A stretch of DNA of 8,996 nt from a virus. Its lineage: Duplodnaviria; Heunggongvirae; Uroviricota; Caudoviricetes. Below the pieces are notes generated by a model. That model did not search any database. It was not told the DNA's origin and was given only the letters and a program-made list of their open reading frames with translations. This document shows, piece after piece, positions 1-8,996 of the stretch. The stretch covers positions 1 to 8,996 of the IMG/VR virus record IMGVR_UViG_2579778899_000011; one strand, 5' to 3'. Position 1 is the first letter of the stretch; each line of letters starts with the position of its first letter. Position numbers and translations under genes: made by a program.

Positions 1-12
1 GGTGAGATATTT

Positions 13-363
13 ATGCCATCACGAATCCCACGCGCCTGCCGTAAGCGTGGATGTGCAGGTACAACCACAGACAGTTCTGGTTACTGCGATAAACATCGTG
101 GCGAAGGATGGGTACAGCATCAACGCGGACTGAGCCGCCACCAGCGTGGCTATGGCTCGAAATGGGATGCCATACGTGCGCGCATACTGAAGCGTGATAA
201 TCATCTGTGTCAGAACTGCCTGCGCAATGGGAGAGCCGTTGAAGCCAGAACTGTGGACCACATCATTCCGAAAGCTCATGGTGGCACGGATGCAGACAGT
301 AACCTGCAGAGTCTGTGCTGGCCCTGTCATAAAGCAAAAACAGCGCGCGAACGCATCAATTGA
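13..363 (+). CDS. Phage HNH endonuclease of the type that sits next to cos and the terminase genes in HK97-like phages
   Basis: 116-aa ORF with ATG at 13 and a GGTGAG Shine-Dalgarno at 1-6. N-terminal Cys cluster (CRKRGCAG...GYCDKH) and the HNH core CQNCL...DHIIPKAHGG...N...LCWPCH. Position directly upstream of terS matches HK97-like packaging modules. Confidence 0.85.
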   Translation: MPSRIPRACRKRGCAGTTTDSSGYCDKHRGEGWVQHQRGLSRHQRGYGSKWDAIRARILKRDNHLCQNCLRNGRAVEARTVDHIIPKAHGGTDADSNLQSLCWPCHKAKTARERIN

Positions 364-510
364 TAACAGTTCCCATCTGTAGGGGAGGGGCGGGTCAAAT
401 CTCTGCAACCCTGGCTGCTCAGTACCGCCGCCTGACCCTTCCTCACATCGCCGCAGGTTCGAAAACTTTTTTTGGAAATGTGAACAAACGATTGATAGGT
501 AAGACCGATT

Positions 511-993
511 ATGTCAGGACCTCCGAAAACCCCGCCACGCCTGCATTTGATACGAGGCAACCCCTCAAAGCGCCCCGTTAAAGACCCCAAAAAAACCGCT
601 AAAAAGGATGAAAAAGGTCTTCCTAAAATTCCGCAGCATTTAGGGGCACAGGGGAAGTACTGGTTCAGGCGAATGGCGGAAGAGCTGAATGCGGAAGGGA
701 TCATTTCTCAGCTTGATGCGCGTGCACTCGAGTTGCTGGTGGAAGCCTACACCGAATATCGGCATCACTGCGAAACACTAGATGTTGAGGGGTATACCTA
801 CCGCACGAAAACGCAGAGCGGTGATGTACTGATTAAGGCGCACCCCGCGGCGGCAATGAAAGCGGATGCCTGGAAGCGGATCCGGGCAATGCTTGCAGAG
901 TTTGGTATGTCACCGGCAAGCCGGGCTAAAGTAAATATCGCCGGACCGGATGATGTTGATCCGCTGGCGGAGCTTTTAAAAGCGAGAGACTGA
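511..993 (+). CDS. terS: Terminase small subunit, P27 family
   Basis: 160-aa ORF with a basic N-terminus (GNPSKRPVKDPKK) and the P27-family core YWFRRMAEEL...ARALELLVEAYTEY...GMSPASRAKV. Its stop overlaps the terL start (TGATG at 991-995), indicating translational coupling. Confidence 0.8.
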   Translation: MSGPPKTPPRLHLIRGNPSKRPVKDPKKTAKKDEKGLPKIPQHLGAQGKYWFRRMAEELNAEGIISQLDARALELLVEAYTEYRHHCETLDVEGYTYRTKTQSGDVLIKAHPAAAMKADAWKRIRAMLAEFGMSPASRAKVNIAGPDDVDPLAELLKARD

Positions 994-2186
994 TGGCAAA
1001 AGTGGCTGACGGGATCCGCTACGCCGAACGTGTTGTTGCAGGAGAAATTGTTGCTGGCGAATTTGTCCGCCTGGCCTGCCAGCGTTTTCTTGATGATCTG
1101 AAGTACGGCGAAGAGCGGGGGATTTATTTCAGTGAACCCCGTGCGCAGCACATCCTGAATTTCTACAAATTTGTGCCTCATGTAAAAGGGGCGCTGGCAG
1201 GCCAGCCCATTGAGTTGATGGACTGGCATGTATTTATCCTCATTAATATTTTTGGTTTTGTCATTCCGCTGGTCAATGAAGAGACCGGAGAAGTTGTCAT
1301 GCGCAGCGATGGCAGCGGACGTCCGGTGATGGTGCGCCGGTTCCGGACGGCGTACAACGAAGTCGCCCGTAAAAACGCAAAATCAACTCTGTCATCGGGT
1401 ATCGGCCTGTATATGACGGGGGCAGATGGTGAAGGCGGAGCTGAGGTGTATTCAGCCGCAACCACGCGTGACCAGGCCAGAATCGTGTTTGAAGACGCCA
1501 AAAATATGGTCAGAAAAGCCCGGTCGACACTCGGGCGGTTGTTTGATTTCAACAAGCTGGCGATTTACCAGGAGCAGAGCGCATCAAAATTTGAACCGCT
1601 TTCTTCGGATGCAAACAACCTGGATGGTCTGAACATCCACTGCGCCATTATTGATGAGCTGCATGCACATAAAACCCGTGACGTGTGGGACGTTCTGGAA
1701 ACGGCAACCGGTGCCCGTCTGCAGTCCCTTTTATTTGGTATCACCACGGCAGGGTTTAACAAGGAAGGGATTTGTTACGAGCAGCGTGATTACGCCATCA
1801 AGGTATTGCGTGGCTATAACAGCGACGTGGAGGGCGCTGTAAAAGACGACTCCTACTTTGCGATTATTTACACCCTCGATGAGGGAGATGATCCGTTTGA
1901 TGAAACGGTCTGGCAGAAAGCAAATCCCGGCCTGGGCATCTGTAAACGCTGGGATGATCTGCGTCGTCTGGCGAAAAAAGCGAAAGAACAGGTCTCTGCG
2001 CGGGTGAATTTTTTTACCAAGAAAGTAACATCACGCCGTAACAACAGTGCGACCTGTCCTGATTTTTTTAGTAACCAAATGAAAGAAAAAGATTTTTTCT
2101 TGTTCGTCGTTTTTGTTTTTTCTGGAAGGTTCTGGCTGTTTTCATCATTTGTGTATTGCACTGTGTATTGCAAAAACGGGTTATAA
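993..2186 (+). pseudogene. terL: Terminase large subunit, 5' ATPase portion only; protein-like sequence stops near 2020 and the ORF tail is AT-rich read-through
   Basis: Residues 1-~340 look like a phage large terminase ATPase domain, with a Walker-B-like IHCAIIDELH and a WQKANPGLG segment. After SARVNFFTKK (about 2004-2024) the frame reads TSRRNNSATCPDFF...FLFVVFVFSGRFWLF, which is low-complexity and not protein-like. Full-length large terminases in this family are about 500-600 aa, so the nuclease domain is absent. This length comparison is from memory, not computed. Confidence 0.7.
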
Positions 2187-2191
2187 ATCAC
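2020..2191. other. Probable left attachment junction (attL) of the inserted element: AT-rich spacer with a tandem 11-bp direct repeat just upstream of int
   Basis: Sharp change from terminase coding sequence to AT-rich sequence with T-runs. Tandem repeat tgtgtattgca at 2150-2160 and 2162-2172. The integrase ATG follows at 2192. Confidence 0.4.
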
Positions 2192-3400
2192 ATGGCTCTA
2201 AACAAACTGAGCGATAAAAAACTTCGTTCCCTGCTTGGGCGCAGGAGTGAGAGGCAGGAAACCATCGCTGATGGTAACGGGCTTTCGGTACGGGTCAGTA
2301 AATACGGATGTGTTAGTTTTGTTTTCTTTTACAGACTGGCGGGAAGGGGAACCGCGCCCATCTGGCTGACACTTGGAAAATATCCTGATCTGAGTCTCAA
2401 ATCAGCGAGAGAGATGCGCGATCAGTGTCGAACCTGGCTTGCGGAGGGCAGAGATCCACGGATTCAGATAAAAATTGAACGGGAAGCCACCTTGCAACCT
2501 GTTACCGTTCGTGAGGCACTTGAATACTGGCTTGATAATTATGCAATGGATAAGCGTAGGGGAGCAGAACATATCAGGCAGTGCTTTGGTAAACATATTT
2601 ATCCGGTGATTGGTCATGTACCACTTAGTGATTGCTCTATATCTATGTGGATCAAGTGTTTTGACAAAATAAAAAAAGTAGCACCTGTACAGGCCGGAGC
2701 TTTGTTGCGTATATCAAAACAGGCGCTTAAATTTTGTAGGGTAAGAAAATACGCGATTAGTCATGAAATTGATGATCTTGAGGTCTGTGATGTGGGAAAA
2801 AAGTCTGCGCGAAGAAGCAGGGTTTTAACAGATGATGAAATCAGAGATTTATGGCGAAGTATTAATACTGATTATGACAATCACGAATTATCATATGAAA
2901 ACCGAATTATTTTACGTTTCCTGGTAGTTTTTGGTTGTCGACTGTCAGAAGTATTACTGTCGTCCTGGGTAGAGTGGGATTTTGATAAGAAATTATGGCG
3001 CGTTCCCGCTGATCATAGCAAAAATGGCAGGGAAATAATCAGACCGATTCCTGATGGCATGTTTAACTGGTTAGTTACGTTAAAAAAAATAACAGGTAAC
3101 AAAGAAAATGTGATTGGGTTTGATATGCGTCAGTGTACGGCAAGCGTAACTATCGGTAAGACATGGAAAAGGATGAAACACTCGGAAAAATGGACGGCGC
3201 ATGATATGCGAAGAGTGTTTGCCACAAAGCTAAGTGATCATGGTTTTGAACATAATGTGGTTGAACAGTTGCTTGGGCACACATTAGGCGGTGTTGCCGG
3301 GGTTTATAACAGAAGTCAGTATATGGACAGAAAAAAAGAAGCTATGAACTGGTGGTACGACTATCTGAATAAGCTAATTAGTGGTGACGGTAATGATTGA
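2192..3400 (+). CDS. int: Tyrosine site-specific integrase, P4-like, with an N-terminal arm-type DNA-binding domain
   Basis: 402 aa from the ATG at 2192. N-terminus MALNKLSDKKLRSL...GLSVRVSKYG...F.FFYR is typical of P4-family integrase arm-binding domains. C-terminus carries the catalytic-core pattern ...RLSEVL...HDMRRVFATKL...LLGHTLGGVAGVYNRSQY. Confidence 0.9.
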   Translation: MALNKLSDKKLRSLLGRRSERQETIADGNGLSVRVSKYGCVSFVFFYRLAGRGTAPIWLTLGKYPDLSLKSAREMRDQCRTWLAEGRDPRIQIKIEREATLQPVTVREALEYWLDNYAMDKRRGAEHIRQCFGKHIYPVIGHVPLSDCSISMWIKCFDKIKKVAPVQAGALLRISKQALKFCRVRKYAISHEIDDLEVCDVGKKSARRSRVLTDDEIRDLWRSINTDYDNHELSYENRIILRFLVVFGCRLSEVLLSSWVEWDFDKKLWRVPADHSKNGREIIRPIPDGMFNWLVTLKKITGNKENVIGFDMRQCTASVTIGKTWKRMKHSEKWTAHDMRRVFATKLSDHGFEHNVVEQLLGHTLGGVAGVYNRSQYMDRKKEAMNWWYDYLNKLISGDGND

Positions 3401-3614
3401 AATAGTTACGCGTGAAGAACTTGAAAATGATAAAACAATCGACAGGATGATTAAGGAAGATGAATGTGCATGGTTAACAGCTCTTGGCCGGAGACACAGA
3501 GCATTACTTGAAAAGGAAGGAAAATTTCCACGGAAAATATGTATTGGCCCACAAACAAAAGTCTGGCGCTTATCTGAGGTGCTGGAATGGGTAAAGGGTG
3601 AATGGAAACCCTGA
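3393..3614 (+). CDS. alpA: AlpA-family phage transcriptional regulator/excisionase-like HTH protein (copy 1)
   Basis: Small ORF whose start overlaps the int stop. Carries the AlpA-type motif ...LGRRHRALLEKEGKFPRKICIGPQTKVWRLSEVLEWV. An alternative start exists at 3447. Confidence 0.65.
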   Translation: MIEIVTREELENDKTIDRMIKEDECAWLTALGRRHRALLEKEGKFPRKICIGPQTKVWRLSEVLEWVKGEWKP

Positions 3615-3637
3615 ACTAAATTAAATGAGATATAATC

Positions 3638-3662
3638 AACCCGTCTTTTGGCGGGTTTTTTT
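3638..3662 (+). terminator. Rho-independent terminator after alpA copy 1
   Basis: Hairpin aacccg-tcttttgg-cgggtt followed by a run of 7 T, seen directly in the sequence. Confidence 0.55.
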
Positions 3663-3677
3663 ATAGGTGATATTTTT

Positions 3678-3956
3678 ATGCAAAAATTTATTTATCCTAC
3701 ACCCGAAGAACGCATTCAGATTCTGAAAGAACATGGCGAACCGTATGATCGCCGTATACGCGAACATGAGTGTGCCAATCGTACCGGGCTTTCAAGAAGC
3801 AGACGTTGGGTACTTGAACAGGAGGGAGCATTTCCTGCTCGTGCTCATTTAGGGAAAGTGTCTGTTTCCTGGTTGCTCTCTGATGTGCTCTGGTGGGTTA
3901 TGCATCCGCCAGGAGTAAAGGAAGTAAACAGCCCATACAAAAACGCCAATAAGTAA
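3678..3956 (+). CDS. Second AlpA-like HTH regulator, a paralog of the upstream copy
   Basis: ATG at 3678 with an AGGTGA Shine-Dalgarno at 3665-3670. The track's TTG start at 3648 lies inside the upstream terminator and is rejected. Motif HECANRTGLSRSRRWVLEQEGAFPARAHLGKVSVSWLLSDVLWWV parallels copy 1. Confidence 0.6.
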   Translation: MQKFIYPTPEERIQILKEHGEPYDRRIREHECANRTGLSRSRRWVLEQEGAFPARAHLGKVSVSWLLSDVLWWVMHPPGVKEVNSPYKNANK

Positions 3957-3964
3957 TTACCGAC

Positions 3965-3995
3965 AACCCCGCACCACGCAATGCGGGGTTTTTTG
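3965..3995 (+). terminator. Rho-independent terminator after the second alpA-like gene
   Basis: Stem aaccccgca (3965-3973) pairs with tgcggggtt (3982-3990) around an 8-nt loop, followed by TTTTTG. Confidence 0.6.
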
Positions 3996-4013
3996 TATGT
4001 GAGGTAGAAAGTG

Positions 4014-4607
4014 ATGAATAAAAATATTGCCGCGACGGGCAAGGGTGACGCACGTCATGTGAAAAAATTCTGTGATATTCGTGATCTGGTCGTTCTGCGC
4101 TTTGATAGTGTGAACGTTCGCGTGGTGTATCTGAACGGCGATCCGTGGTTTGTTGGCGCTGATGTGTGTGCGGCGCTGGAAATTAGCAACGTTACCGATG
4201 CTGTTTCAGTTCTGGATAGCGATGAGGTAATGACCCTAGCTTTAACCGAGGGTCATTCAGGTAAGCGTGGTGGTGCCAGAAGTTGGAATGTTGTATCAGA
4301 ATCAGGTTTTTACAAGTTGATCGCCAGAAGTCGCAAAGCTGTTAATCCTGGCACGTTCGCCCATCGTTTCAGTAATTGGGTATTCAGAAATGTGATACCG
4401 GGTATCAGAAAAACGGGGGCTTATGGTATCCCGTGGGGCGCATTACAGGATTTTTCCCGCCGCAAAGAGCAATACCAGATAAGTGCCAGTGAGAAGGGGA
4501 GGGCGCTACAGGCATGTAAGCGCAAAAAGCGTGAACTGGAGGAGGAAGAAAAAAGGCTGATACGTGAATATCAGCCTGAGTTTTACTTTGGTGAGCGTAT
4601 TCAGTAA
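4014..4607 (+). CDS. Bro-N domain protein (phage antirepressor-like N-terminal domain) with a charged, coiled-coil-like C-terminus
   Basis: ATG at 4014 with a GAGGTAG Shine-Dalgarno at 4001-4007. Bro-N signatures: F...IR...DGDPWFVGADVCAALEISN...SESGFYKLIARSRKAVNPGTFAHRFSNWVFRNVIPGIRKTGAYG. C-terminus KRKKRELEEEEKRLIREY. No KilA-C/Ant C-terminal domain is apparent. Confidence 0.7.
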   Translation: MNKNIAATGKGDARHVKKFCDIRDLVVLRFDSVNVRVVYLNGDPWFVGADVCAALEISNVTDAVSVLDSDEVMTLALTEGHSGKRGGARSWNVVSESGFYKLIARSRKAVNPGTFAHRFSNWVFRNVIPGIRKTGAYGIPWGALQDFSRRKEQYQISASEKGRALQACKRKKRELEEEEKRLIREYQPEFYFGERIQ

Positions 4608-4890
4608 CCGCGTACGGTGCTGATTATACGGTACATCGTGTTAACCGGGAAGTTACCCACCAGCAAGGCAAAATCTTCTGCTAAAAAATGACATATGGCC
4701 AGTCGTCCGGAAAGCATGAAATTTTACAAAAATGGAAAATGAAGATTTTTATTGTGCTGGTGGGTAAAAACAAAAAGCGCCCCGTTACCGGAGCGCCCTT
4801 GCGAACAATTAACCTACTGCGCAAAAAATGAATCTGTGCGGGGGGATTATATCAACCGTGGTCGAAATGACCATAGTTGCAGGATAACAG

Positions 4891-4920
4891 GCAAAACAAA
4901 GGCCACCCGCTACGGTGGCC
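4891..4920 (-). terminator. Rho-independent terminator for leftward transcription
   Basis: Perfect 7-bp stem ggccacc/ggtggcc (4901-4920) around a 6-nt loop. On the minus strand it is followed by a U-rich tract (plus-strand caaaacaaa at 4892-4900). Confidence 0.5.
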
Positions 4921-4998
4921 CCTCGACACAAGCACACGTTATCCCCAACGCATGAGCATAACCAACAATGCCACATTTACGGCTGGTGGGCAATGTGA

Positions 4999-5172
4999 TC
5001 AGTCAGATTTGGTTCGTTCCAAGGTTTGCAACGAGAGCTTTTTCCTGTGCTCTTTAAGGAATTTCTCAAGAGCAAAAGCACATGGCGCGAATCTTTCTGA
5101 TTCATGCTCTATCTTTCTGCGCCGTCTTTTCCGTGCCGGTGATAATGTTTTGGTCAATTCTTTATCGGTCAT
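4999..5172 (-). CDS. Hypothetical small, highly basic protein downstream of the RHH-like gene; may be non-coding
   Basis: ORF in the six-frame track (4999-5187). An internal ATG at 5172 has an AGGA-like Shine-Dalgarno. Contains RKRRRRK. No recognisable family. Confidence 0.2.
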   Translation of the reverse strand: MTDKELTKTLSPARKRRRRKIEHESERFAPCAFALEKFLKEHRKKLSLQTLERTKSD

Positions 5173-5229
5173 TGTGTTGTCCTGCATAGCAATGCGCCGT
5201 AGTTACTCACACCACGGCGCTGGTGATGG

Positions 5230-5409
5230 TTACTCCTGCTCTTTGGCCTTGCGACGCTGGCGGTACTCAACTTCTCGCTTTAATGCTGCTGTTACAAACT
5301 GCCCTGTACTTTCACCAGGCATTTTTACCGCCTCAACATTGTTCATAACTTCATGCGGAACCCTTGCCGCAACTGTTTGTGATTTTGCGTTTACTGCTTT
5401 TGTCGCCAT
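5230..5409 (-). CDS. Small ribbon-helix-helix-like DNA-binding protein, candidate repressor of the divergent switch
   Basis: 59-aa ORF translated by hand from the minus strand: MATKAVNAKSQTVAARVPHEVMNNVEAVKMPGESTGQFVTAALKREVEYRQRRKAKEQE. GAGGGG Shine-Dalgarno about 8 nt upstream of the ATG. Not in the supplied track because it is under the length cut-off. The RHH assignment rests on a beta-strand/helix/helix pattern judged by eye. Confidence 0.4.
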   Translation of the reverse strand: MATKAVNAKSQTVAARVPHEVMNNVEAVKMPGESTGQFVTAALKREVEYRQRRKAKEQE

Positions 5410-5459
5410 GTTGTGTACCCCTCACAAAAAACAAATGCAGTATGCAGGAAAAAAAATAA

Positions 5460-5511
5460 GTGTTCAACACTTGACGTGTTTAACACCTGGGTTTAAATTG
5501 GTGTTCAACAC
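5460..5511. promoter_or_regulatory. Divergent promoter/operator region with three copies of an 11-bp palindrome
   Basis: gtgttcaacac at 5460-5470, gtgtttaacac at 5476-5486, gtgttcaacac at 5501-5511. Each is a GTGTT/AACAC inverted repeat. A -35-like ttgacg (5471-5476) and a -10-like taaatt (5494-5499) 17 bp apart sit between and over the operators, pointing rightward toward the operon starting at 5609. Confidence 0.5.
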
Positions 5512-5608
5512 CTTATTAATGCAAGGTGCAGAAACGACGAAACCCGGCAGTGCGCGAACACTAACCGGGCTTCTAACCACCAACGATAGCAAGCGTATCG
5601 AGGTAGCT

Positions 5609-5815
5609 ATGAGAAATCATACCACACACCCGCAAGGGCGGGACTCGCACAACCTGAATAAATACATCTGGCGTTTTATCGCCCTGAGTACGGCACAACC
5701 GCGCGTAATTCACATCGAGGCCACCAGCGAACAGGAAGCACGCCAGCAATCTCCTGATGGCTGCGTGATGGTATTCGCCGCCCGTATTCGTCAGGAGGTG
5801 AGCCATGTGCAATAA
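5609..5815 (+). CDS. Small protein resembling the Icd-like (host cell division inhibitor) family of P4-like elements
   Basis: 68 aa, MRNHTTHPQGRDSHNLNKYIWRFIALSTAQPRVIHIEATSEQEARQQ..., with GAGG just upstream of the ATG. The family assignment is from memory of annotations in P4-like islands, not from a search. Confidence 0.4.
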   Translation: MRNHTTHPQGRDSHNLNKYIWRFIALSTAQPRVIHIEATSEQEARQQSPDGCVMVFAARIRQEVSHVQ

Positions 5816-6050
5816 CACCCGTCCGGACGCAGCCGCCGAAGCTATCAGAACGCTGATGCACGCGCTGATTGATATTTCATGCACGGCAGCAACCGCAGAA
5901 AAACACATTACCAGAGAGACGGAATATACAGGGGCAATAATCCCGCATTCGCTGGTCTACACACAGCTTACCGCTGATATGGCGCTGAATGAGGCTAAAG
6001 CCATCCTGATTGCTGATTGTGAAAATGGCGGGGGCGATTATGCGAAATAA
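5805..6050 (+). CDS. Hypothetical protein, translationally coupled to the upstream gene
   Basis: 81-aa ORF with a strong AGGAGGTG Shine-Dalgarno at 5793-5800. Its ATG at 5805 overlaps the stop of the preceding gene at 5813-5815. Confidence 0.4.
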   Translation: MCNNTRPDAAAEAIRTLMHALIDISCTAATAEKHITRETEYTGAIIPHSLVYTQLTADMALNEAKAILIADCENGGGDYAK

Positions 6051-6258
6051 ACATGATATTGAAGACCTGGCATTTGAAGCCCTGCACTCTGCGAAAAAAA
6101 TCAGGGAAGTCGTCAATATGTGGATGAACAGCCTTAGCACCGATAAATCCGATAGCAGAGAAGAAATTCTTATTTCTTTGTTGTTAGACCTGGCAAATAC
6201 ACAGGTTTCTCTGACATCTGATATTGAGCTCGCCGCTAAAAAGCTGCCTCTGGAGTAA
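6040..6258 (+). CDS. Hypothetical small acidic protein
   Basis: The ATG at 6040 overlaps the stop of the previous gene at 6048-6050. An alternative ATG lies at 6025. No recognisable motif. Confidence 0.35.
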   Translation: MRNKHDIEDLAFEALHSAKKIREVVNMWMNSLSTDKSDSREEILISLLLDLANTQVSLTSDIELAAKKLPLE

Positions 6259-6264
6259 AAAAAC

Positions 6265-6579
6265 ATGAAAAAGAAAAATTCTGGCTTTACTGCCAGCGGT
6301 CACGCTCGGCCTGAAATCCGCCCCGGTGATATTTTCCGGGATAAATACGGCAGCACGATAACGATTAAAACCGTCGATGATTTTCGTGTGACCTATATCC
6401 GCGAAGGTTATGCGCATCCCTGCGTGTCGTCACATATGCGCTTTGACAGGGAGTTCACCCTGGTAAGCAAAGCACCACCAGCAGAATTAAGCGACATCGA
6501 CAGAATCATGCGCGTTACAGGAATGGAACGCATTAAGGCAGTACGTGAAATTATTCGTGAACGGGGAAAGGCAAAATGA
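6265..6579 (+). CDS. Small protein, DUF4222-like, of the kind found immediately upstream of replication genes in P4-like islands
   Basis: 104-aa ORF with a GGAG Shine-Dalgarno about 8 nt upstream. Motif PGDIFRDKYGSTITIKTVDDFRVTYIREGYAHPC. Its stop overlaps the start of the next gene (ATGA at 6576-6579). DUF assignment is from memory. Confidence 0.35.
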   Translation: MKKKNSGFTASGHARPEIRPGDIFRDKYGSTITIKTVDDFRVTYIREGYAHPCVSSHMRFDREFTLVSKAPPAELSDIDRIMRVTGMERIKAVREIIRERGKAK

Positions 6580-8702
6580 AGCGCGCACCAAACTTAAAGC
6601 ACCAGCCAGCCGACAAAATGACGGAGGTTATCATCTTTGCGGGTAGTGATGCGTGGAGCCATGCGAAAGAGTGGCAGGAATGGGCAGGTAAACATATTGC
6701 CGCCGACAATGTGCCGCCTGTCGTTCTGTCAGATGAACACCTGAAAGATATTACTGGTTATCAAATTATTGATGATAGCCGTCAGTGTGTGCGTATTTAC
6801 CGCGCAGGGCACATCACTGAACGTAGCCTCACACAGATCGTCACGTTGCTGGCTGTGGCTGGCGTGAAGACCGTATACGAATACGCGGGGATAACTGACA
6901 CCAGCCCGGCGGATTTATCCGACCAGTTGCCTCGCCTCAAAGACGAATACGAGCGCGGGGAAAGTCTGGTGTTGCCCTTAAAGAAAAAAATCACAGAAAG
7001 CCCGGGTGATGATGAATTAAAGCCCCGCGTTGAAAGCCGCGCCGATGGTGTTTTCTGGGTAACGCCAAAAGTGGATAAGCAGTCAGGCGAAATTATCCGG
7101 CCTGAAACGTGGTTATGCTCCCCGCTTGAGCTACTGGGAACGGGGACAATCGGCAAAGAGCATTACCGCGTGATGCGCTGGAAAAAGCCAGCAAACCATG
7201 ACGTCATCACGATGGCGGTTCCGTGCGGTGGCATTGGCGACCGTGACGGCTGGCGGCTGCTGAAAGACCACGGACTGAACGTGACAACCAACGGTAAATA
7301 CAGGGCTATCCTGGCTGACTGGATGCAGTTAAGCGGAAACCATGAGGAATGGCAGTTAAGCACAACAACGGGCTGGCATTTTGGCGCGTACATCATGCCG
7401 GACGGTTCGGTCATTGGTGATTGCGAAAAGCCAGTCCTGTTTACCGGAAAAACGGCTGCCGTTAATGGTTATTCCGTGGCAGGAACGGCGGAGGGCTGGC
7501 GCGATACCGTGGCGCGACTGGCTGGTGGTAATCCGTCCATGATGCTGGGTGTGGCGGTATCGCTATCCGCACCATTAATCGGGCTGGTGGGCGCTGATGG
7601 CTTCGGGGTACATCTTTTCGAACAGTCATCAGCAGGTAAGACCACAACGCAGAACATCGCATCAAGTTTATGGGGGGAGCCGGACGCACAACGGCTGACC
7701 TGGTACGGCACAGCGTTAGGTATCGCCAACGAAGCAGAGGCACACAATGACGGGCTTTTACCCCTGGATGAAATAGGTCAGGCCGGAAACGCGCGGGAGG
7801 TGTCCACGTCAGCCTATACGCTGTTTAACGGTTCAGGGAAATTACAGGGGGCAAAGGACGGCGGCAACAGGGAGATAAAACACTGGCGAACGGTGGCAAT
7901 CAGTACCGGAGAAATGGACGTTGAAACATTCCTCAAAACGGAGGGGATAAAAGTCAAGGCGGGGCAGCTTGTCCGTCTGCTTAACGTGCCGATGGAAAAA
8001 GCCACGCAGTTTCACGAATACAGCACCGGAAAGGCACACGCAGACGCGTTAAAGGATGCCTGGACAGCAAATCACGGGGCGGCTGGTCGTGAATGGGTTA
8101 AATGGCTGGCAGACCACCAGCAGGAGGCAAAGGACGCGGTAAGGGCATGCCGTGAACGGTGGCGCAATCTGATACCGGAGAGCTACGGCGAACAGGTTCA
8201 CCGCGTGGGTGAGCGATTCGCCATACTGGAGGCCGCGCTTGTGCTTTCCGGTCATGTTACTGGCTGGGATGTTCAGGCGTGCCGCGATGCCATACAGCAT
8301 AATTTTAATGCCTGGGTGAAGGAATTCGGTACGGGTAACAGGGAGTTTAAACAGATGGTTGAACAGGCAGAGGCTTTTTTAGCGTCGTTCGGATTCAGCA
8401 GATACCTTCCGTGGCCCAACACCGACGAGCGTGATTTACCGATTAAAGAGCTTGCCGGATACAGAAAGGGGAGTATCAGAAACGAAGATGACGAGTTCCG
8501 TTTTTACACGTTCCCACATGTATTTGAGGGTGAGATAGCACAGGGATTTAATCCGTCTCACTTTGCCCGCGCGTTGAGTGCTGCCGGAATGCTGGAAGCG
8601 GGTAACGATCGCCGTTACAAGAAAAAGGCGCTCGGCAGGATTGGGGGGAAGCAGCATGTTTTTTACGTGCTGATGTTCCAGCCAGAAAGCGAAGAAGATT
8701 AA
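6576..8702 (+). CDS. Replication initiator, a P-loop NTPase (primase/helicase-like; DUF927 or SF3-like family candidate)
   Basis: 708-aa ORF. Walker A EQSSAGKTT at residues 349-357 (nt 7620-7646). Walker-B-like LLPLDE about 40 residues downstream. A large N-terminal domain has no motif I can name. Lies immediately upstream of an iteron-rich origin-like region. Confidence 0.65.
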   Translation: MKRAPNLKHQPADKMTEVIIFAGSDAWSHAKEWQEWAGKHIAADNVPPVVLSDEHLKDITGYQIIDDSRQCVRIYRAGHITERSLTQIVTLLAVAGVKTVYEYAGITDTSPADLSDQLPRLKDEYERGESLVLPLKKKITESPGDDELKPRVESRADGVFWVTPKVDKQSGEIIRPETWLCSPLELLGTGTIGKEHYRVMRWKKPANHDVITMAVPCGGIGDRDGWRLLKDHGLNVTTNGKYRAILADWMQLSGNHEEWQLSTTTGWHFGAYIMPDGSVIGDCEKPVLFTGKTAAVNGYSVAGTAEGWRDTVARLAGGNPSMMLGVAVSLSAPLIGLVGADGFGVHLFEQSSAGKTTTQNIASSLWGEPDAQRLTWYGTALGIANEAEAHNDGLLPLDEIGQAGNAREVSTSAYTLFNGSGKLQGAKDGGNREIKHWRTVAISTGEMDVETFLKTEGIKVKAGQLVRLLNVPMEKATQFHEYSTGKAHADALKDAWTANHGAAGREWVKWLADHQQEAKDAVRACRERWRNLIPESYGEQVHRVGERFAILEAALVLSGHVTGWDVQACRDAIQHNFNAWVKEFGTGNREFKQMVEQAEAFLASFGFSRYLPWPNTDERDLPIKELAGYRKGSIRNEDDEFRFYTFPHVFEGEIAQGFNPSHFARALSAAGMLEAGNDRRYKKKALGRIGGKQHVFYVLMFQPESEED

Positions 8703-8724
8703 TTTTTTCTCGCGTGTAGGGTGA

Positions 8725-8880
8725 AAATTTTGCGGGTTATGCGGGTTATTTCTGTGGATAAATCAGCATCCATATGATTATTAAAGGAATGACAGAAAAA
8801 TCGTAACCCGCAAAATACCCAAAATAACCCGCAAAACGGCAGTTATAACCCGCAAAAGTGCGATTATAACCCGCAGAATT
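8725..8880. repeat. Origin-of-replication-like iteron array with a DnaA box and an AT-rich spacer
   Basis: Four direct repeats of (t)ataacccgca(a/g)aa at about 8804, 8824, 8845 and 8866, spaced roughly 20-21 bp. Inverted tandem copies gcgggttat at 8731-8749. A perfect DnaA box TTATCCACA on the minus strand (plus tgtggataa, 8753-8761). AT-rich stretch at 8750-8800. Confidence 0.6.
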
Positions 8881-8938
8881 TCACCGTAAGGGTGTAAACA
8901 AGCGTAACCATCAACGTTAAAACCGGAGAGCAGACAGC

Positions 8939-8996
8939 ATGACAGCACAGATAGCGGCTTACGGGCGGCTGGTGGCTGACCCGCAGTTAAAGACCA
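8939..8996 (+). CDS. 5' end of a gene running off the window; N-terminus resembles the start of SSB-type OB-fold proteins
   Basis: ATG at 8939 preceded by GGAGAG. MTAQIAAYGRLVADPQLKT resembles the N-terminal strand of SSB family proteins. Only 19 residues are visible. Confidence 0.25.
   Translation, partial: MTAQIAAYGRLVADPQLKT

Follow-up and report, generated by a model that had tools for sequence, protein, structure and literature searches.

Why does a satellite-type integrase gene, followed by regulators, a primase gene and an array of origin-like repeats, begin where the large terminase gene of a phage should continue? The question is raised by a stretch of 8,996 nucleotides of tailed-phage DNA (IMG/VR record IMGVR_UViG_2579778899_000011, positions 1 to 8,996), hereafter the window, in which the reading frame of the large terminase gene, terL, loses its likeness to terminases shortly before the integrase gene int. 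Our analysis supports the view that a satellite of the phage-inducible chromosomal island (PICI) type is inserted in terL of a cos-type (HNH-TerS-TerL, phiP27/HK97-like) lambdoid helper prophage of Escherichia coli. The insertion divides terL beyond its ATPase domain, and the integrase was found only at this site. The arrangement, including the same 7-bp site, is not new: it was described in 2023 under the name helper-embedded PICI (HE-PICI), a class of 491 elements of one integrase clade that occupy 14 sites in nine prophage late genes (Tommasini, Mageeney, Williams 2023, NAR Genom Bioinform, PMC10111431). The window adds independent confirmation that the TerL restored by excision would match a free phage's at every position, an estimate of how often the site is occupied, and the indication that this site group pairs helper embedding with a full capsid-forming module.

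The split terminase gene and its attachment sites

The window ends inside the satellite, so attR, the late module and the remaining helper were taken from the same element in other genomes, namely E. coli O177:H21 (CP016546.1) and the prototype enteroaggregative strain E. coli 042, as annotated by the Prokaryotic Genome Annotation Pipeline (PGAP); statements about these parts refer to those two strains unless one is named. The best match to the full window was 98.1% identical over 95% of the window. The helper packaging module and the left end of the satellite are laid out as follows, where terL' denotes the truncated gene and ORF an open reading frame.

13 to 363, plus strand: HNH endonuclease of the helper prophage, a packaging accessory of HK97/phiP27-type cos phages (Pfam HNH, E = 1.9e-16; 95-99% identical to phage records)
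364 to 510: probable cos region of the helper, the HNH-terS spacer (the annotated cos site of phiP27 falls under the homologue of window 13-432)
511 to 993, plus strand: small terminase of the helper, P27 family (Pfam Terminase_4, E = 2.6e-25; annotated as P27 family in O177:H21)
993 to 2020, plus strand: 5' fragment of the helper terL, codons 1-343, with the ATPase domain and the first 68 of 286 nuclease positions (from Pfam, alignments and the rejoined 585-aa TerL)
2014 to 2020, plus strand: attL crossover core TTACCAA, left end of the satellite (the same 7-mer at attL, attR and attB, and the published identity block 'ttaccaa')
2021 to 2186, plus strand: element-derived tail of the terL' ORF, 55 unrelated codons, with the stop TAA at 2184-2186, 5 nt before the int ATG
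2150 to 2172, plus strand: downstream copy of the doubled arm-type motif tgTGTATTGCactgTGTATTGCa, the HE-PICI attP signature (1 match against 0.00 expected)

The terL ORF (993-2186) matched Pfam TerL_ATPase with E = 8e-28, whereas TerL_nuclease was matched at positions 2-68 of 286 only, so that 218 of the 286 nuclease positions are absent from the truncated gene. Alignments to 11 E. coli phage records (95-99% identity) start at about 3-13 and stop at 2020, where a blastn alignment to an intact phage likewise terminates, and the GC content falls from about 0.52 on the left of this point to about 0.41 on its right. The original prediction had placed the break near 2020. The end of homology is indeed at 2020, with the small correction that the crossover core occupies 2014-2020 (codons 341-343 of terL) and that the next 55 codons of the ORF are DNA of the element. 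Full-length homologues of only about 340-400 amino acids that aligned through 2186 would have spoken against an insertion; the intact homologues, however, are 585 amino acids long and diverge from the window's ORF at 2020.

The three attachment sites can be read side by side.

attB, intact terL of phage vB_EcoM-606R7: GTGAATTTTTTTACCAA-ACACATGAATG
attL, window: GTGAATTTTTTTACCAA-GAAAGTAAC
attR, E. coli O177:H21: GAAATATTCTTACCAA-ACACATGAATG

The attR copy of TTACCAA lies about 15.4 kb downstream of attL (the O177:H21 copy of the element is 15,448 bp). There the 3' fragment of terL directly adjoins the far end of the inserted element, and its nuclease part continues in frame after the attR core, so that both the att repeat and the terL 3' segment, whose lack would have pointed to a deletion, are present. 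When window 993-2020 was joined to the O177:H21 sequence from position 37470 onward, the product was a TerL of 585 amino acids, identical at 585 of 585 positions to that of phage vB_EcoM-606R7, so that precise excision would rebuild terL exactly. The predicted junction of the repaired gene (attB) contains ...GAATTTTTTTACCAAACACATGAATG..., and that of the satellite attP contains ...GAAATATTCTTACCAAGAAAGTAAC.... Because the 55 codons that follow the core in the interrupted frame are unrelated to terL, the satellite supplies no replacement segment; attP is thus free of replacement sequence, and this late gene would stay disrupted until the satellite excises, as in HE-PICIs. The suggestions that the satellite inactivates the terL of its helper and that excision acts as a switch restoring the gene are both supported in silico, and both agree with a published proposal called 'regulated gene integrity' (PMC10111431).

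A doubled attP motif, tgTGTATTGCantgTGTATTGCa, has been described as diagnostic of HE-PICIs (PMC10111431), and each of the two attP arms carries it here, at a set distance from the crossover. The form TGTATTGCnnTGTGTATTGC occurs once in the window against 0.00 expected by chance. The doubled TGTATTGC motif on the two arms is spaced as in 11capE (Eco567.11.E_Phage_cap_E_80 of E. coli NRG857c), the founding, experimentally induced HE-PICI: the downstream copy (window 2150-2172) lies at about +135 bp from the centre of the core, compared with about +134 in 11capE, and the upstream copy (O177:H21 locus 37366-37388) at about -98 bp, compared with about -100. Distances of 132 and 81 bp are quoted in PMC10111431, probably from different reference points. 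The integrase is 50% identical to that of 11capE over 396 amino acids without a gap (E = 4e-144), which, together with its position at terL in every copy surveyed and the membership of the element in a published site group, indicates that it belongs to the HE-PICI clade. In the published table, CP016546.1/4486766-4502213, which is the O177:H21 locus used for comparison here, is listed as Eco4041.15.A_Terminase_1_246 with the helper Eco4041.57.S and the identity block 'ttaccaa'; its site group, A:Terminase_1:246, has 68 members (PMC10111431), and the element-side arm in the published attL alignment of this group is identical to that of the window.

We surveyed 5,426 complete E. coli genomes. 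This type of terL was present in 931 of them, the uninterrupted attB region in 901, the attL junction in 36 and the integrase in 36, and the terL fragment directly adjoined the integrase in all 36 of the latter. With 36 occupied and 901 empty sites, these counts give an estimate of occupancy, and the well-studied strain 042 is among the carriers. Carriers of the junction are diverse (human, swine, poultry, bovine and river-water sources) and hold mosaic variants of the satellite, although 8 of them are near-identical OkiPb genomes.

These counts bear on the simplest alternative, that an integrase of the P4 type strayed from a tRNA target or that the junction was made by assembly or deletion. 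For integrases that have this arm-binding domain, tRNA or tmRNA genes are common targets, which speaks for a stray event. Moreover, 28 off-target HE-PICI events are on record (PMC10111431). A stray or artefactual junction is, however, not expected next to 36 of 36 integrase copies in complete genomes, with the same 7-bp core and a matching attR in independent closed genomes, nor with 68 published members at the same site (PMC10111431). With these counts, an error of assembly, a deletion that happened once and integration off target are all ruled out, and we regard this alternative as next to impossible. Nor is the junction due to chance, because the doubled motif was found once against 0.00 expected and 36 independent complete genomes share the junction. 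Taken together, the junction, the attachment sites and the survey agree with the original prediction of a satellite inserted inside the large terminase gene of a cos-type phage, and all the sequence-level features that define HE-PICIs and that we tested are present.

The satellite, its helper and a proposed route to excision

Beyond the attL arm, the window holds the following genes and sites of the satellite.

2192 to 3400, plus strand: HE-PICI-clade tyrosine integrase whose arm-binding domain is of the P4 type (Pfam Arm-DNA-bind_3 and Phage_integrase)
3381 to 3614, plus strand: first AlpA-family regulator or excisionase, which overlaps the int end (the PGAP start corresponds to 3393; Pfam Phage_AlpA, E = 2.5e-9)
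3638 to 3657, plus strand: strong terminator-like hairpin after the first alpA
3648 to 3956, plus strand: second AlpA-family regulator, probable ATG at 3678 (Pfam Phage_AlpA, E = 7.2e-10)
3965 to 3990, plus strand: strong terminator-like hairpin after the second alpA
4011 to 4607, plus strand: Bro-N domain protein, the Bro zone (Pfam Bro-N, E = 1.8e-16)
5187 to 4999, minus strand: 62-aa ORF of the leftward switch arm, closed by a terminator at 4923-4898
5409 to 5230, minus strand: YlcI/YnfO-family gene of the leftward switch arm (NCBIfam YlcI_YnfO_N, E = 2e-16)
5460 to 5513: operator-like triple palindrome GTGTTyAACAC, overlapping a rightward promoter-like site at 5471-5499
5609 to 5815, plus strand: first gene of the rightward operon, 68 aa, with an Ash-like N-terminus and an Icd-like C-terminus (compared with the ash-family and Icd-like coding sequences of O177:H21)
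6265 to 6579, plus strand: DUF4222 (Pfam, E = 9e-19)
6576 to 8702, plus strand: DUF927 primase/helicase (Pfam, E = 1.4e-45; weak match to a replicative helicase family)
8727 to 8878: iteron origin, ATAACCCGCAAAA four times at 21-bp spacing (8804-8878) and two inverted copies at 8727-8749

Every part of the satellite module that had been predicted (the integrase at 2192, AlpA regulators, a Bro-N protein, the divergent switch, the primase/rep operon and the iteron origin) was thus found by Pfam, NCBIfam and repeat scans. The zones of an HE-PICI follow the order Integration (Int, AlpA), Bro, Replication and Late; the first three are in the window, and the Late zone is in O177:H21 and 042. Compared with O177:H21, the window differs in a mosaic manner in the Bro and switch zones. 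A plasmid collection had only short stretches in common with the satellite, mostly from the switch region. A second cluster of iteron-like repeats, GCGGGTTA(T/C) in both orientations, was seen in the O177:H21 locus (37020-37080 and 37150-37190); it sits between the terL of the satellite and attR, far from the primase-proximal origin at window 8727-8878.

Beyond the end of the window, the element continues with a single-stranded DNA-binding protein (SSB) and a PerC-family regulator, followed by an entire head and packaging module that encodes a major capsid protein, a prohead protease, a portal, proteins for head closure and connectors, HNH, TerS and a TerL of full length, while no tail genes are annotated between attL and attR. 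This element therefore shows the gene order of a capsid-forming PICI (cf-PICI), that is, an int/alpA/primase core, then capsid-protease-portal-connectors, then hnh-terS-terL, and the late zone of the genome under study is presumably a module of the same type. The packaging proteins of satellite and helper have diverged widely (HNH 42%, TerS 27% and TerL 32% identical), no detectable similarity was found when the HNH-terS spacers (cos regions) of the two were compared, and the satellite's own terL is without a TTACCAA site.

The late module is 97% identical in a PICI at the fis site of E. coli PD7, and a counterpart with 82% nucleotide identity over about 5.5 kb lies in 'prophage Sp7' of O157:H7 Sakai, between roxA and phoQ. 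In these elements it is paired with other integration and replication modules, with a RepA helicase at fis in PD7 and with a primase at roxA/phoQ in Sp7, which shows that PICI lineages exchange modules.

One alternative is that the interrupted element is itself a capsid-forming satellite rather than a true helper phage, as the original prediction had considered. An HNH-TerS-TerL module is typical of cf-PICIs too, the window shows nothing upstream of HNH, and 24 HE-PICIs of a different site group sit inside PICIs (PMC10111431). In O177:H21 and 042, however, the satellite interrupts a complete lambdoid prophage that has replication genes as well as genes for Q, holin, lysozyme, Rz, portal, protease and capsid, to which O177:H21 adds a full tail module; the O177:H21 helper has been mapped as a 57-kb prophage at tRNA-Ser (PMC10111431), and window 1-2020 matches phage genomes of about 38-53 kb at 95-99% identity. 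The capsid-forming satellite is thus the inserted element and not the interrupted one, and nesting in another satellite is very improbable. As in other HE-PICIs, the element lies co-oriented inside a late gene of a prophage that surrounds it in full.

We favor, with a probability of roughly 0.84, a model in which the integrase of a satellite of about 15.4 kb recombines TTACCAA in the helper terL, excision restores terL, and helper late transcription drives this excision. Upon helper induction, antiterminated late transcription would run through HNH, terS and terL' into int and alpA. We infer this read-through because our promoter and terminator scan found no terminator-like hairpin on the plus strand between 1537 and 3637 and no promoter-like site on that strand before 5471; in the window, int, alpA and the primase gene share the strand of terL, so that the satellite is co-oriented with the late operon of the helper. 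If int and alpA are read in this way, Int and AlpA would be made late, and the satellite would then excise. A functional helper terminase would appear only after this excision, and packaging of the helper would be delayed and reduced. The satellite would replicate from its own iteron origin with the DUF927 primase/helicase, and, by analogy with the cf-PICI EcCIEDL933, its capsid, protease, portal, connector, HNH, TerS and TerL proteins may form small capsids that package satellite DNA and take only tails from the helper. Because the satellite's own terminase is dissimilar, the split terL should hurt the helper only. The model agrees with the published proposal, in which helper replication and late transcription pass passively into the co-oriented satellite, and with quantitative PCR and deep sequencing of 11capE, in which the composite excised and replicated first and the satellite excised later (PMC10111431).

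Several observations weigh against this model. A strong hairpin follows each alpA gene, and convergent minus-strand terminators and a candidate small RNA lie beyond bro, so that passive read-through into the rest of the satellite is not assured; only with antitermination would transcription from terL' get as far as bro and the later genes. Experimental excision is known for the sister element 11capE only, in a capsid gene, and 11capE virions were not recovered (PMC10111431), whereas the terL site group is known from sequence alone. The satellite was absent from 50,697 phage records, which thus gave no positive evidence of packaging, although a satellite would be expected to be missing from such records; they do contain the helper type, with an intact terL. 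For the genome that gave the window, attR as well as the late module and the remaining helper DNA are presumed from the relatives described above. Finally, the helper integrase is frameshifted in O177:H21 (locus 1949-2999), where the composite may have lost the ability to exit the chromosome, even if excision of the satellite is possible, and many helpers look truncated (PMC10111431). Some composites may therefore be dead ends.

The last points lead to the alternative that the locus is a decaying prophage remnant, in which a satellite integrated once and the pair has since been inherited vertically, inert and with no working switch. Besides the frameshift, the truncated helpers and the missing 11capE virions (PMC10111431), the 8 near-identical OkiPb genomes, which show clonal inheritance, fit such a history. 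Decay is hard to reconcile, however, with two halves of terL that are perfectly intact and give 585 of 585 identities on rejoining, with int, alpA, primase and late genes that are all intact ORFs, with a junction spread over strains from human, swine, poultry, bovine and river-water sources that carry mosaic satellites, and with a sister element that excises on induction (PMC10111431). We therefore consider a remnant quite unlikely, and retain the model of excision driven by late transcription.

The link between helper and satellite could be translational as well as transcriptional, in that Int synthesis in the lysogen would depend on ribosomes translating the terL' message, an idea that we put forward only tentatively and regard as unlikely. 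It arises because int has neither a consensus promoter nor, by eye, an obvious Shine-Dalgarno sequence before it, while the terL' frame is open across the attL arm. A run of T residues in this arm (window 2090-2100; O177:H21 locus 22091-22102; 042 locus 16070-16081) exists in three forms, A+T6, A+T7 and T8, and its length decides whether the terL' ORF stops 5 nt before the int ATG or is fused in frame to int. The window has the A+T6 form, with the stop at 2184-2186, whereas a difference of one base fuses the frames in O177:H21 and 042, the two that were read directly. When the 36 genomes were classed by alignment length, 29 had the arm length of the window and 7 had one extra base. The idea is weak but testable, because the open frame is only marginally unusual (5.8% of dinucleotide shuffles keep it open) and because in the capsid-gene site group, by our reading of the published attL sequence, a stop occurs about 13 codons after the core. 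In PMC10111431, terL'-int fusions were treated as annotation errors and flagged for re-annotation, and the open frame is a detail left unexplored there. If the idea is true, the satellite would be a direct sensor of helper late translation, and the split terL would be a pure anti-helper device at no cost to a satellite that has its own dissimilar terminase.

Candidate RNAs and repeats of the switch region

Two candidate RNA genes were noticed around the divergent switch.

4763 to 4873, minus strand: candidate small-RNA gene, RNA of about 75 nt (4838-4763), with a strong promoter-like site at 4873-4846 and a strong terminator at 4800-4773
5536 to 5608, minus strand: candidate antisense RNA resembling SymR, on the strand opposite to the ribosome-binding site and 5' leader of the gene that opens the rightward operon (ATG 5609)

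The promoter-like site of the first is TGGTCA-16-TATAAT with an extended -10 TG. In 263 E. coli genomes its segment is kept at about 90-93%, the PICI at the roxA site of CFT073 being one example, and it mostly lacks annotation. In other PICIs the -10 box shows no change and the body hardly any, changes in the terminator are compensatory, and similarity is lost after the U-tract. No Rfam family matched this candidate; the name Esr41 was considered and dropped, since Esr41 is in Rfam and yet gave no match. A search of the window for a trans target was equally negative, the best non-self duplex reaching -35 kcal/mol against a shuffled mean of -36.

The second candidate scored 32 bits against the Rfam symR model, below the gathering threshold of 61 (E = 7e-4 on 1.15 kb). 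Three PICI lineages conserve it, namely the terL HE-PICIs (O177:H21 and 042), EcCICFT073 of CFT073 and 11capE, with compensatory changes in 3 of 28 pairs, and an extended -10-like TGgTATGAT stands about 7 nt upstream of its predicted 5' end. Both candidates may be RNA regulators of PICI immunity, and we offer them as leads and not as findings. Searches for an immunity RNA of the P4 type (Rfam C4 and isrK) in the Bro and switch zones gave no match, although E values of up to 10 were allowed.

Three copies of the 12-mer GCTGGTGGGYAA are present in the window, compared with 0.1 expected, at 4653-4664 (minus), 4756-4767 (plus) and 4982-4993 (plus), so that one copy is complementary to the other two, an arrangement that recalls the seqA/B/C logic of P4. 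It was rejected as part of the candidate small-RNA unit, since it sits just past the terminator and is not conserved in PICIs of the CFT073 type.

Likeness to known systems

The closest system is the HE-PICI site group A:Terminase_1:246, for example Eco4041.15.A_Terminase_1_246, with which the element shares the gene, the codon, the TTACCAA block, the attL arm and the doubled TGTATTGC motifs, as well as the order of zones (Int/AlpA, Bro, replication, late) and a size of about 15 kb. Nothing substantive differs; the window only has its mosaic Bro and switch zones and its A+T6 run compared with O177:H21.

11capE has the same arm-motif offsets, an integrase 50% identical over its full length, and the same arrangement of genes for AlpA, YlcI/YnfO, an Icd-like protein, DUF4222, primase and SSB, and it too is co-oriented inside a helper late gene. 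It differs in targeting the major capsid gene E via a 10-bp core and in its late zone, which consists of capsid and decoration genes and a HEPN/DUF262 pair in place of a full head and packaging module; it presumably uses the helper terminase.

With the cf-PICIs (Alqurainy et al., bioRxiv 10.1101/2022.09.08.507074; prototype EcCIEDL933) the element shares a late zone that comprises capsid, protease, portal, connectors, HNH, TerS and TerL but lacks tail genes, the Int, AlpA, primase, SSB and PerC-family genes upstream of it, and a size of about 15 kb. The cf-PICI attB sites are chromosomal (bioRxiv 10.1101/2022.09.08.507074), and small capsids of its own that need only helper tails have been shown for EcCIEDL933 only. 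The relative that we compared was Sp7 of Sakai, taken here as a related element; it differs in its chromosomal site between roxA and phoQ, in its integrase, and in interacting with a helper only in trans.

The description of the element as P4-like holds only loosely. The arm-binding domain of the integrase, AlpA, the Icd/Ash-like genes, the primase/helicase with an adjacent iteron origin and the dependence on a helper are all related to P4. In contrast to P4, sid, psu and delta are not annotated in the full element, the switch region has no C4/isrK match up to E 10 that would indicate a CI/C4-type immunity RNA, capsids would, by analogy, be built from the element's own proteins and not by resizing those of the helper, and integration occurs in a phage gene and not in a tRNA gene.

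Helper-embedded satellites represent a cis-acting layer of the conflict between satellites and helpers, described in the literature since 2022-2023, in which the packaging enzyme of the helper stays unfinished until the parasite leaves. In this respect the element resembles cases of regulated gene integrity or active lysogeny, in which a site-specific element splits a gene without bringing a replacement segment and precise excision restores the gene at a set time. Examples are the skin element in sigK and phi10403S in comK. The difference is that here the gene being split is part of another mobile element, namely the helper phage, and the timing presumably serves the satellite and not the cell.

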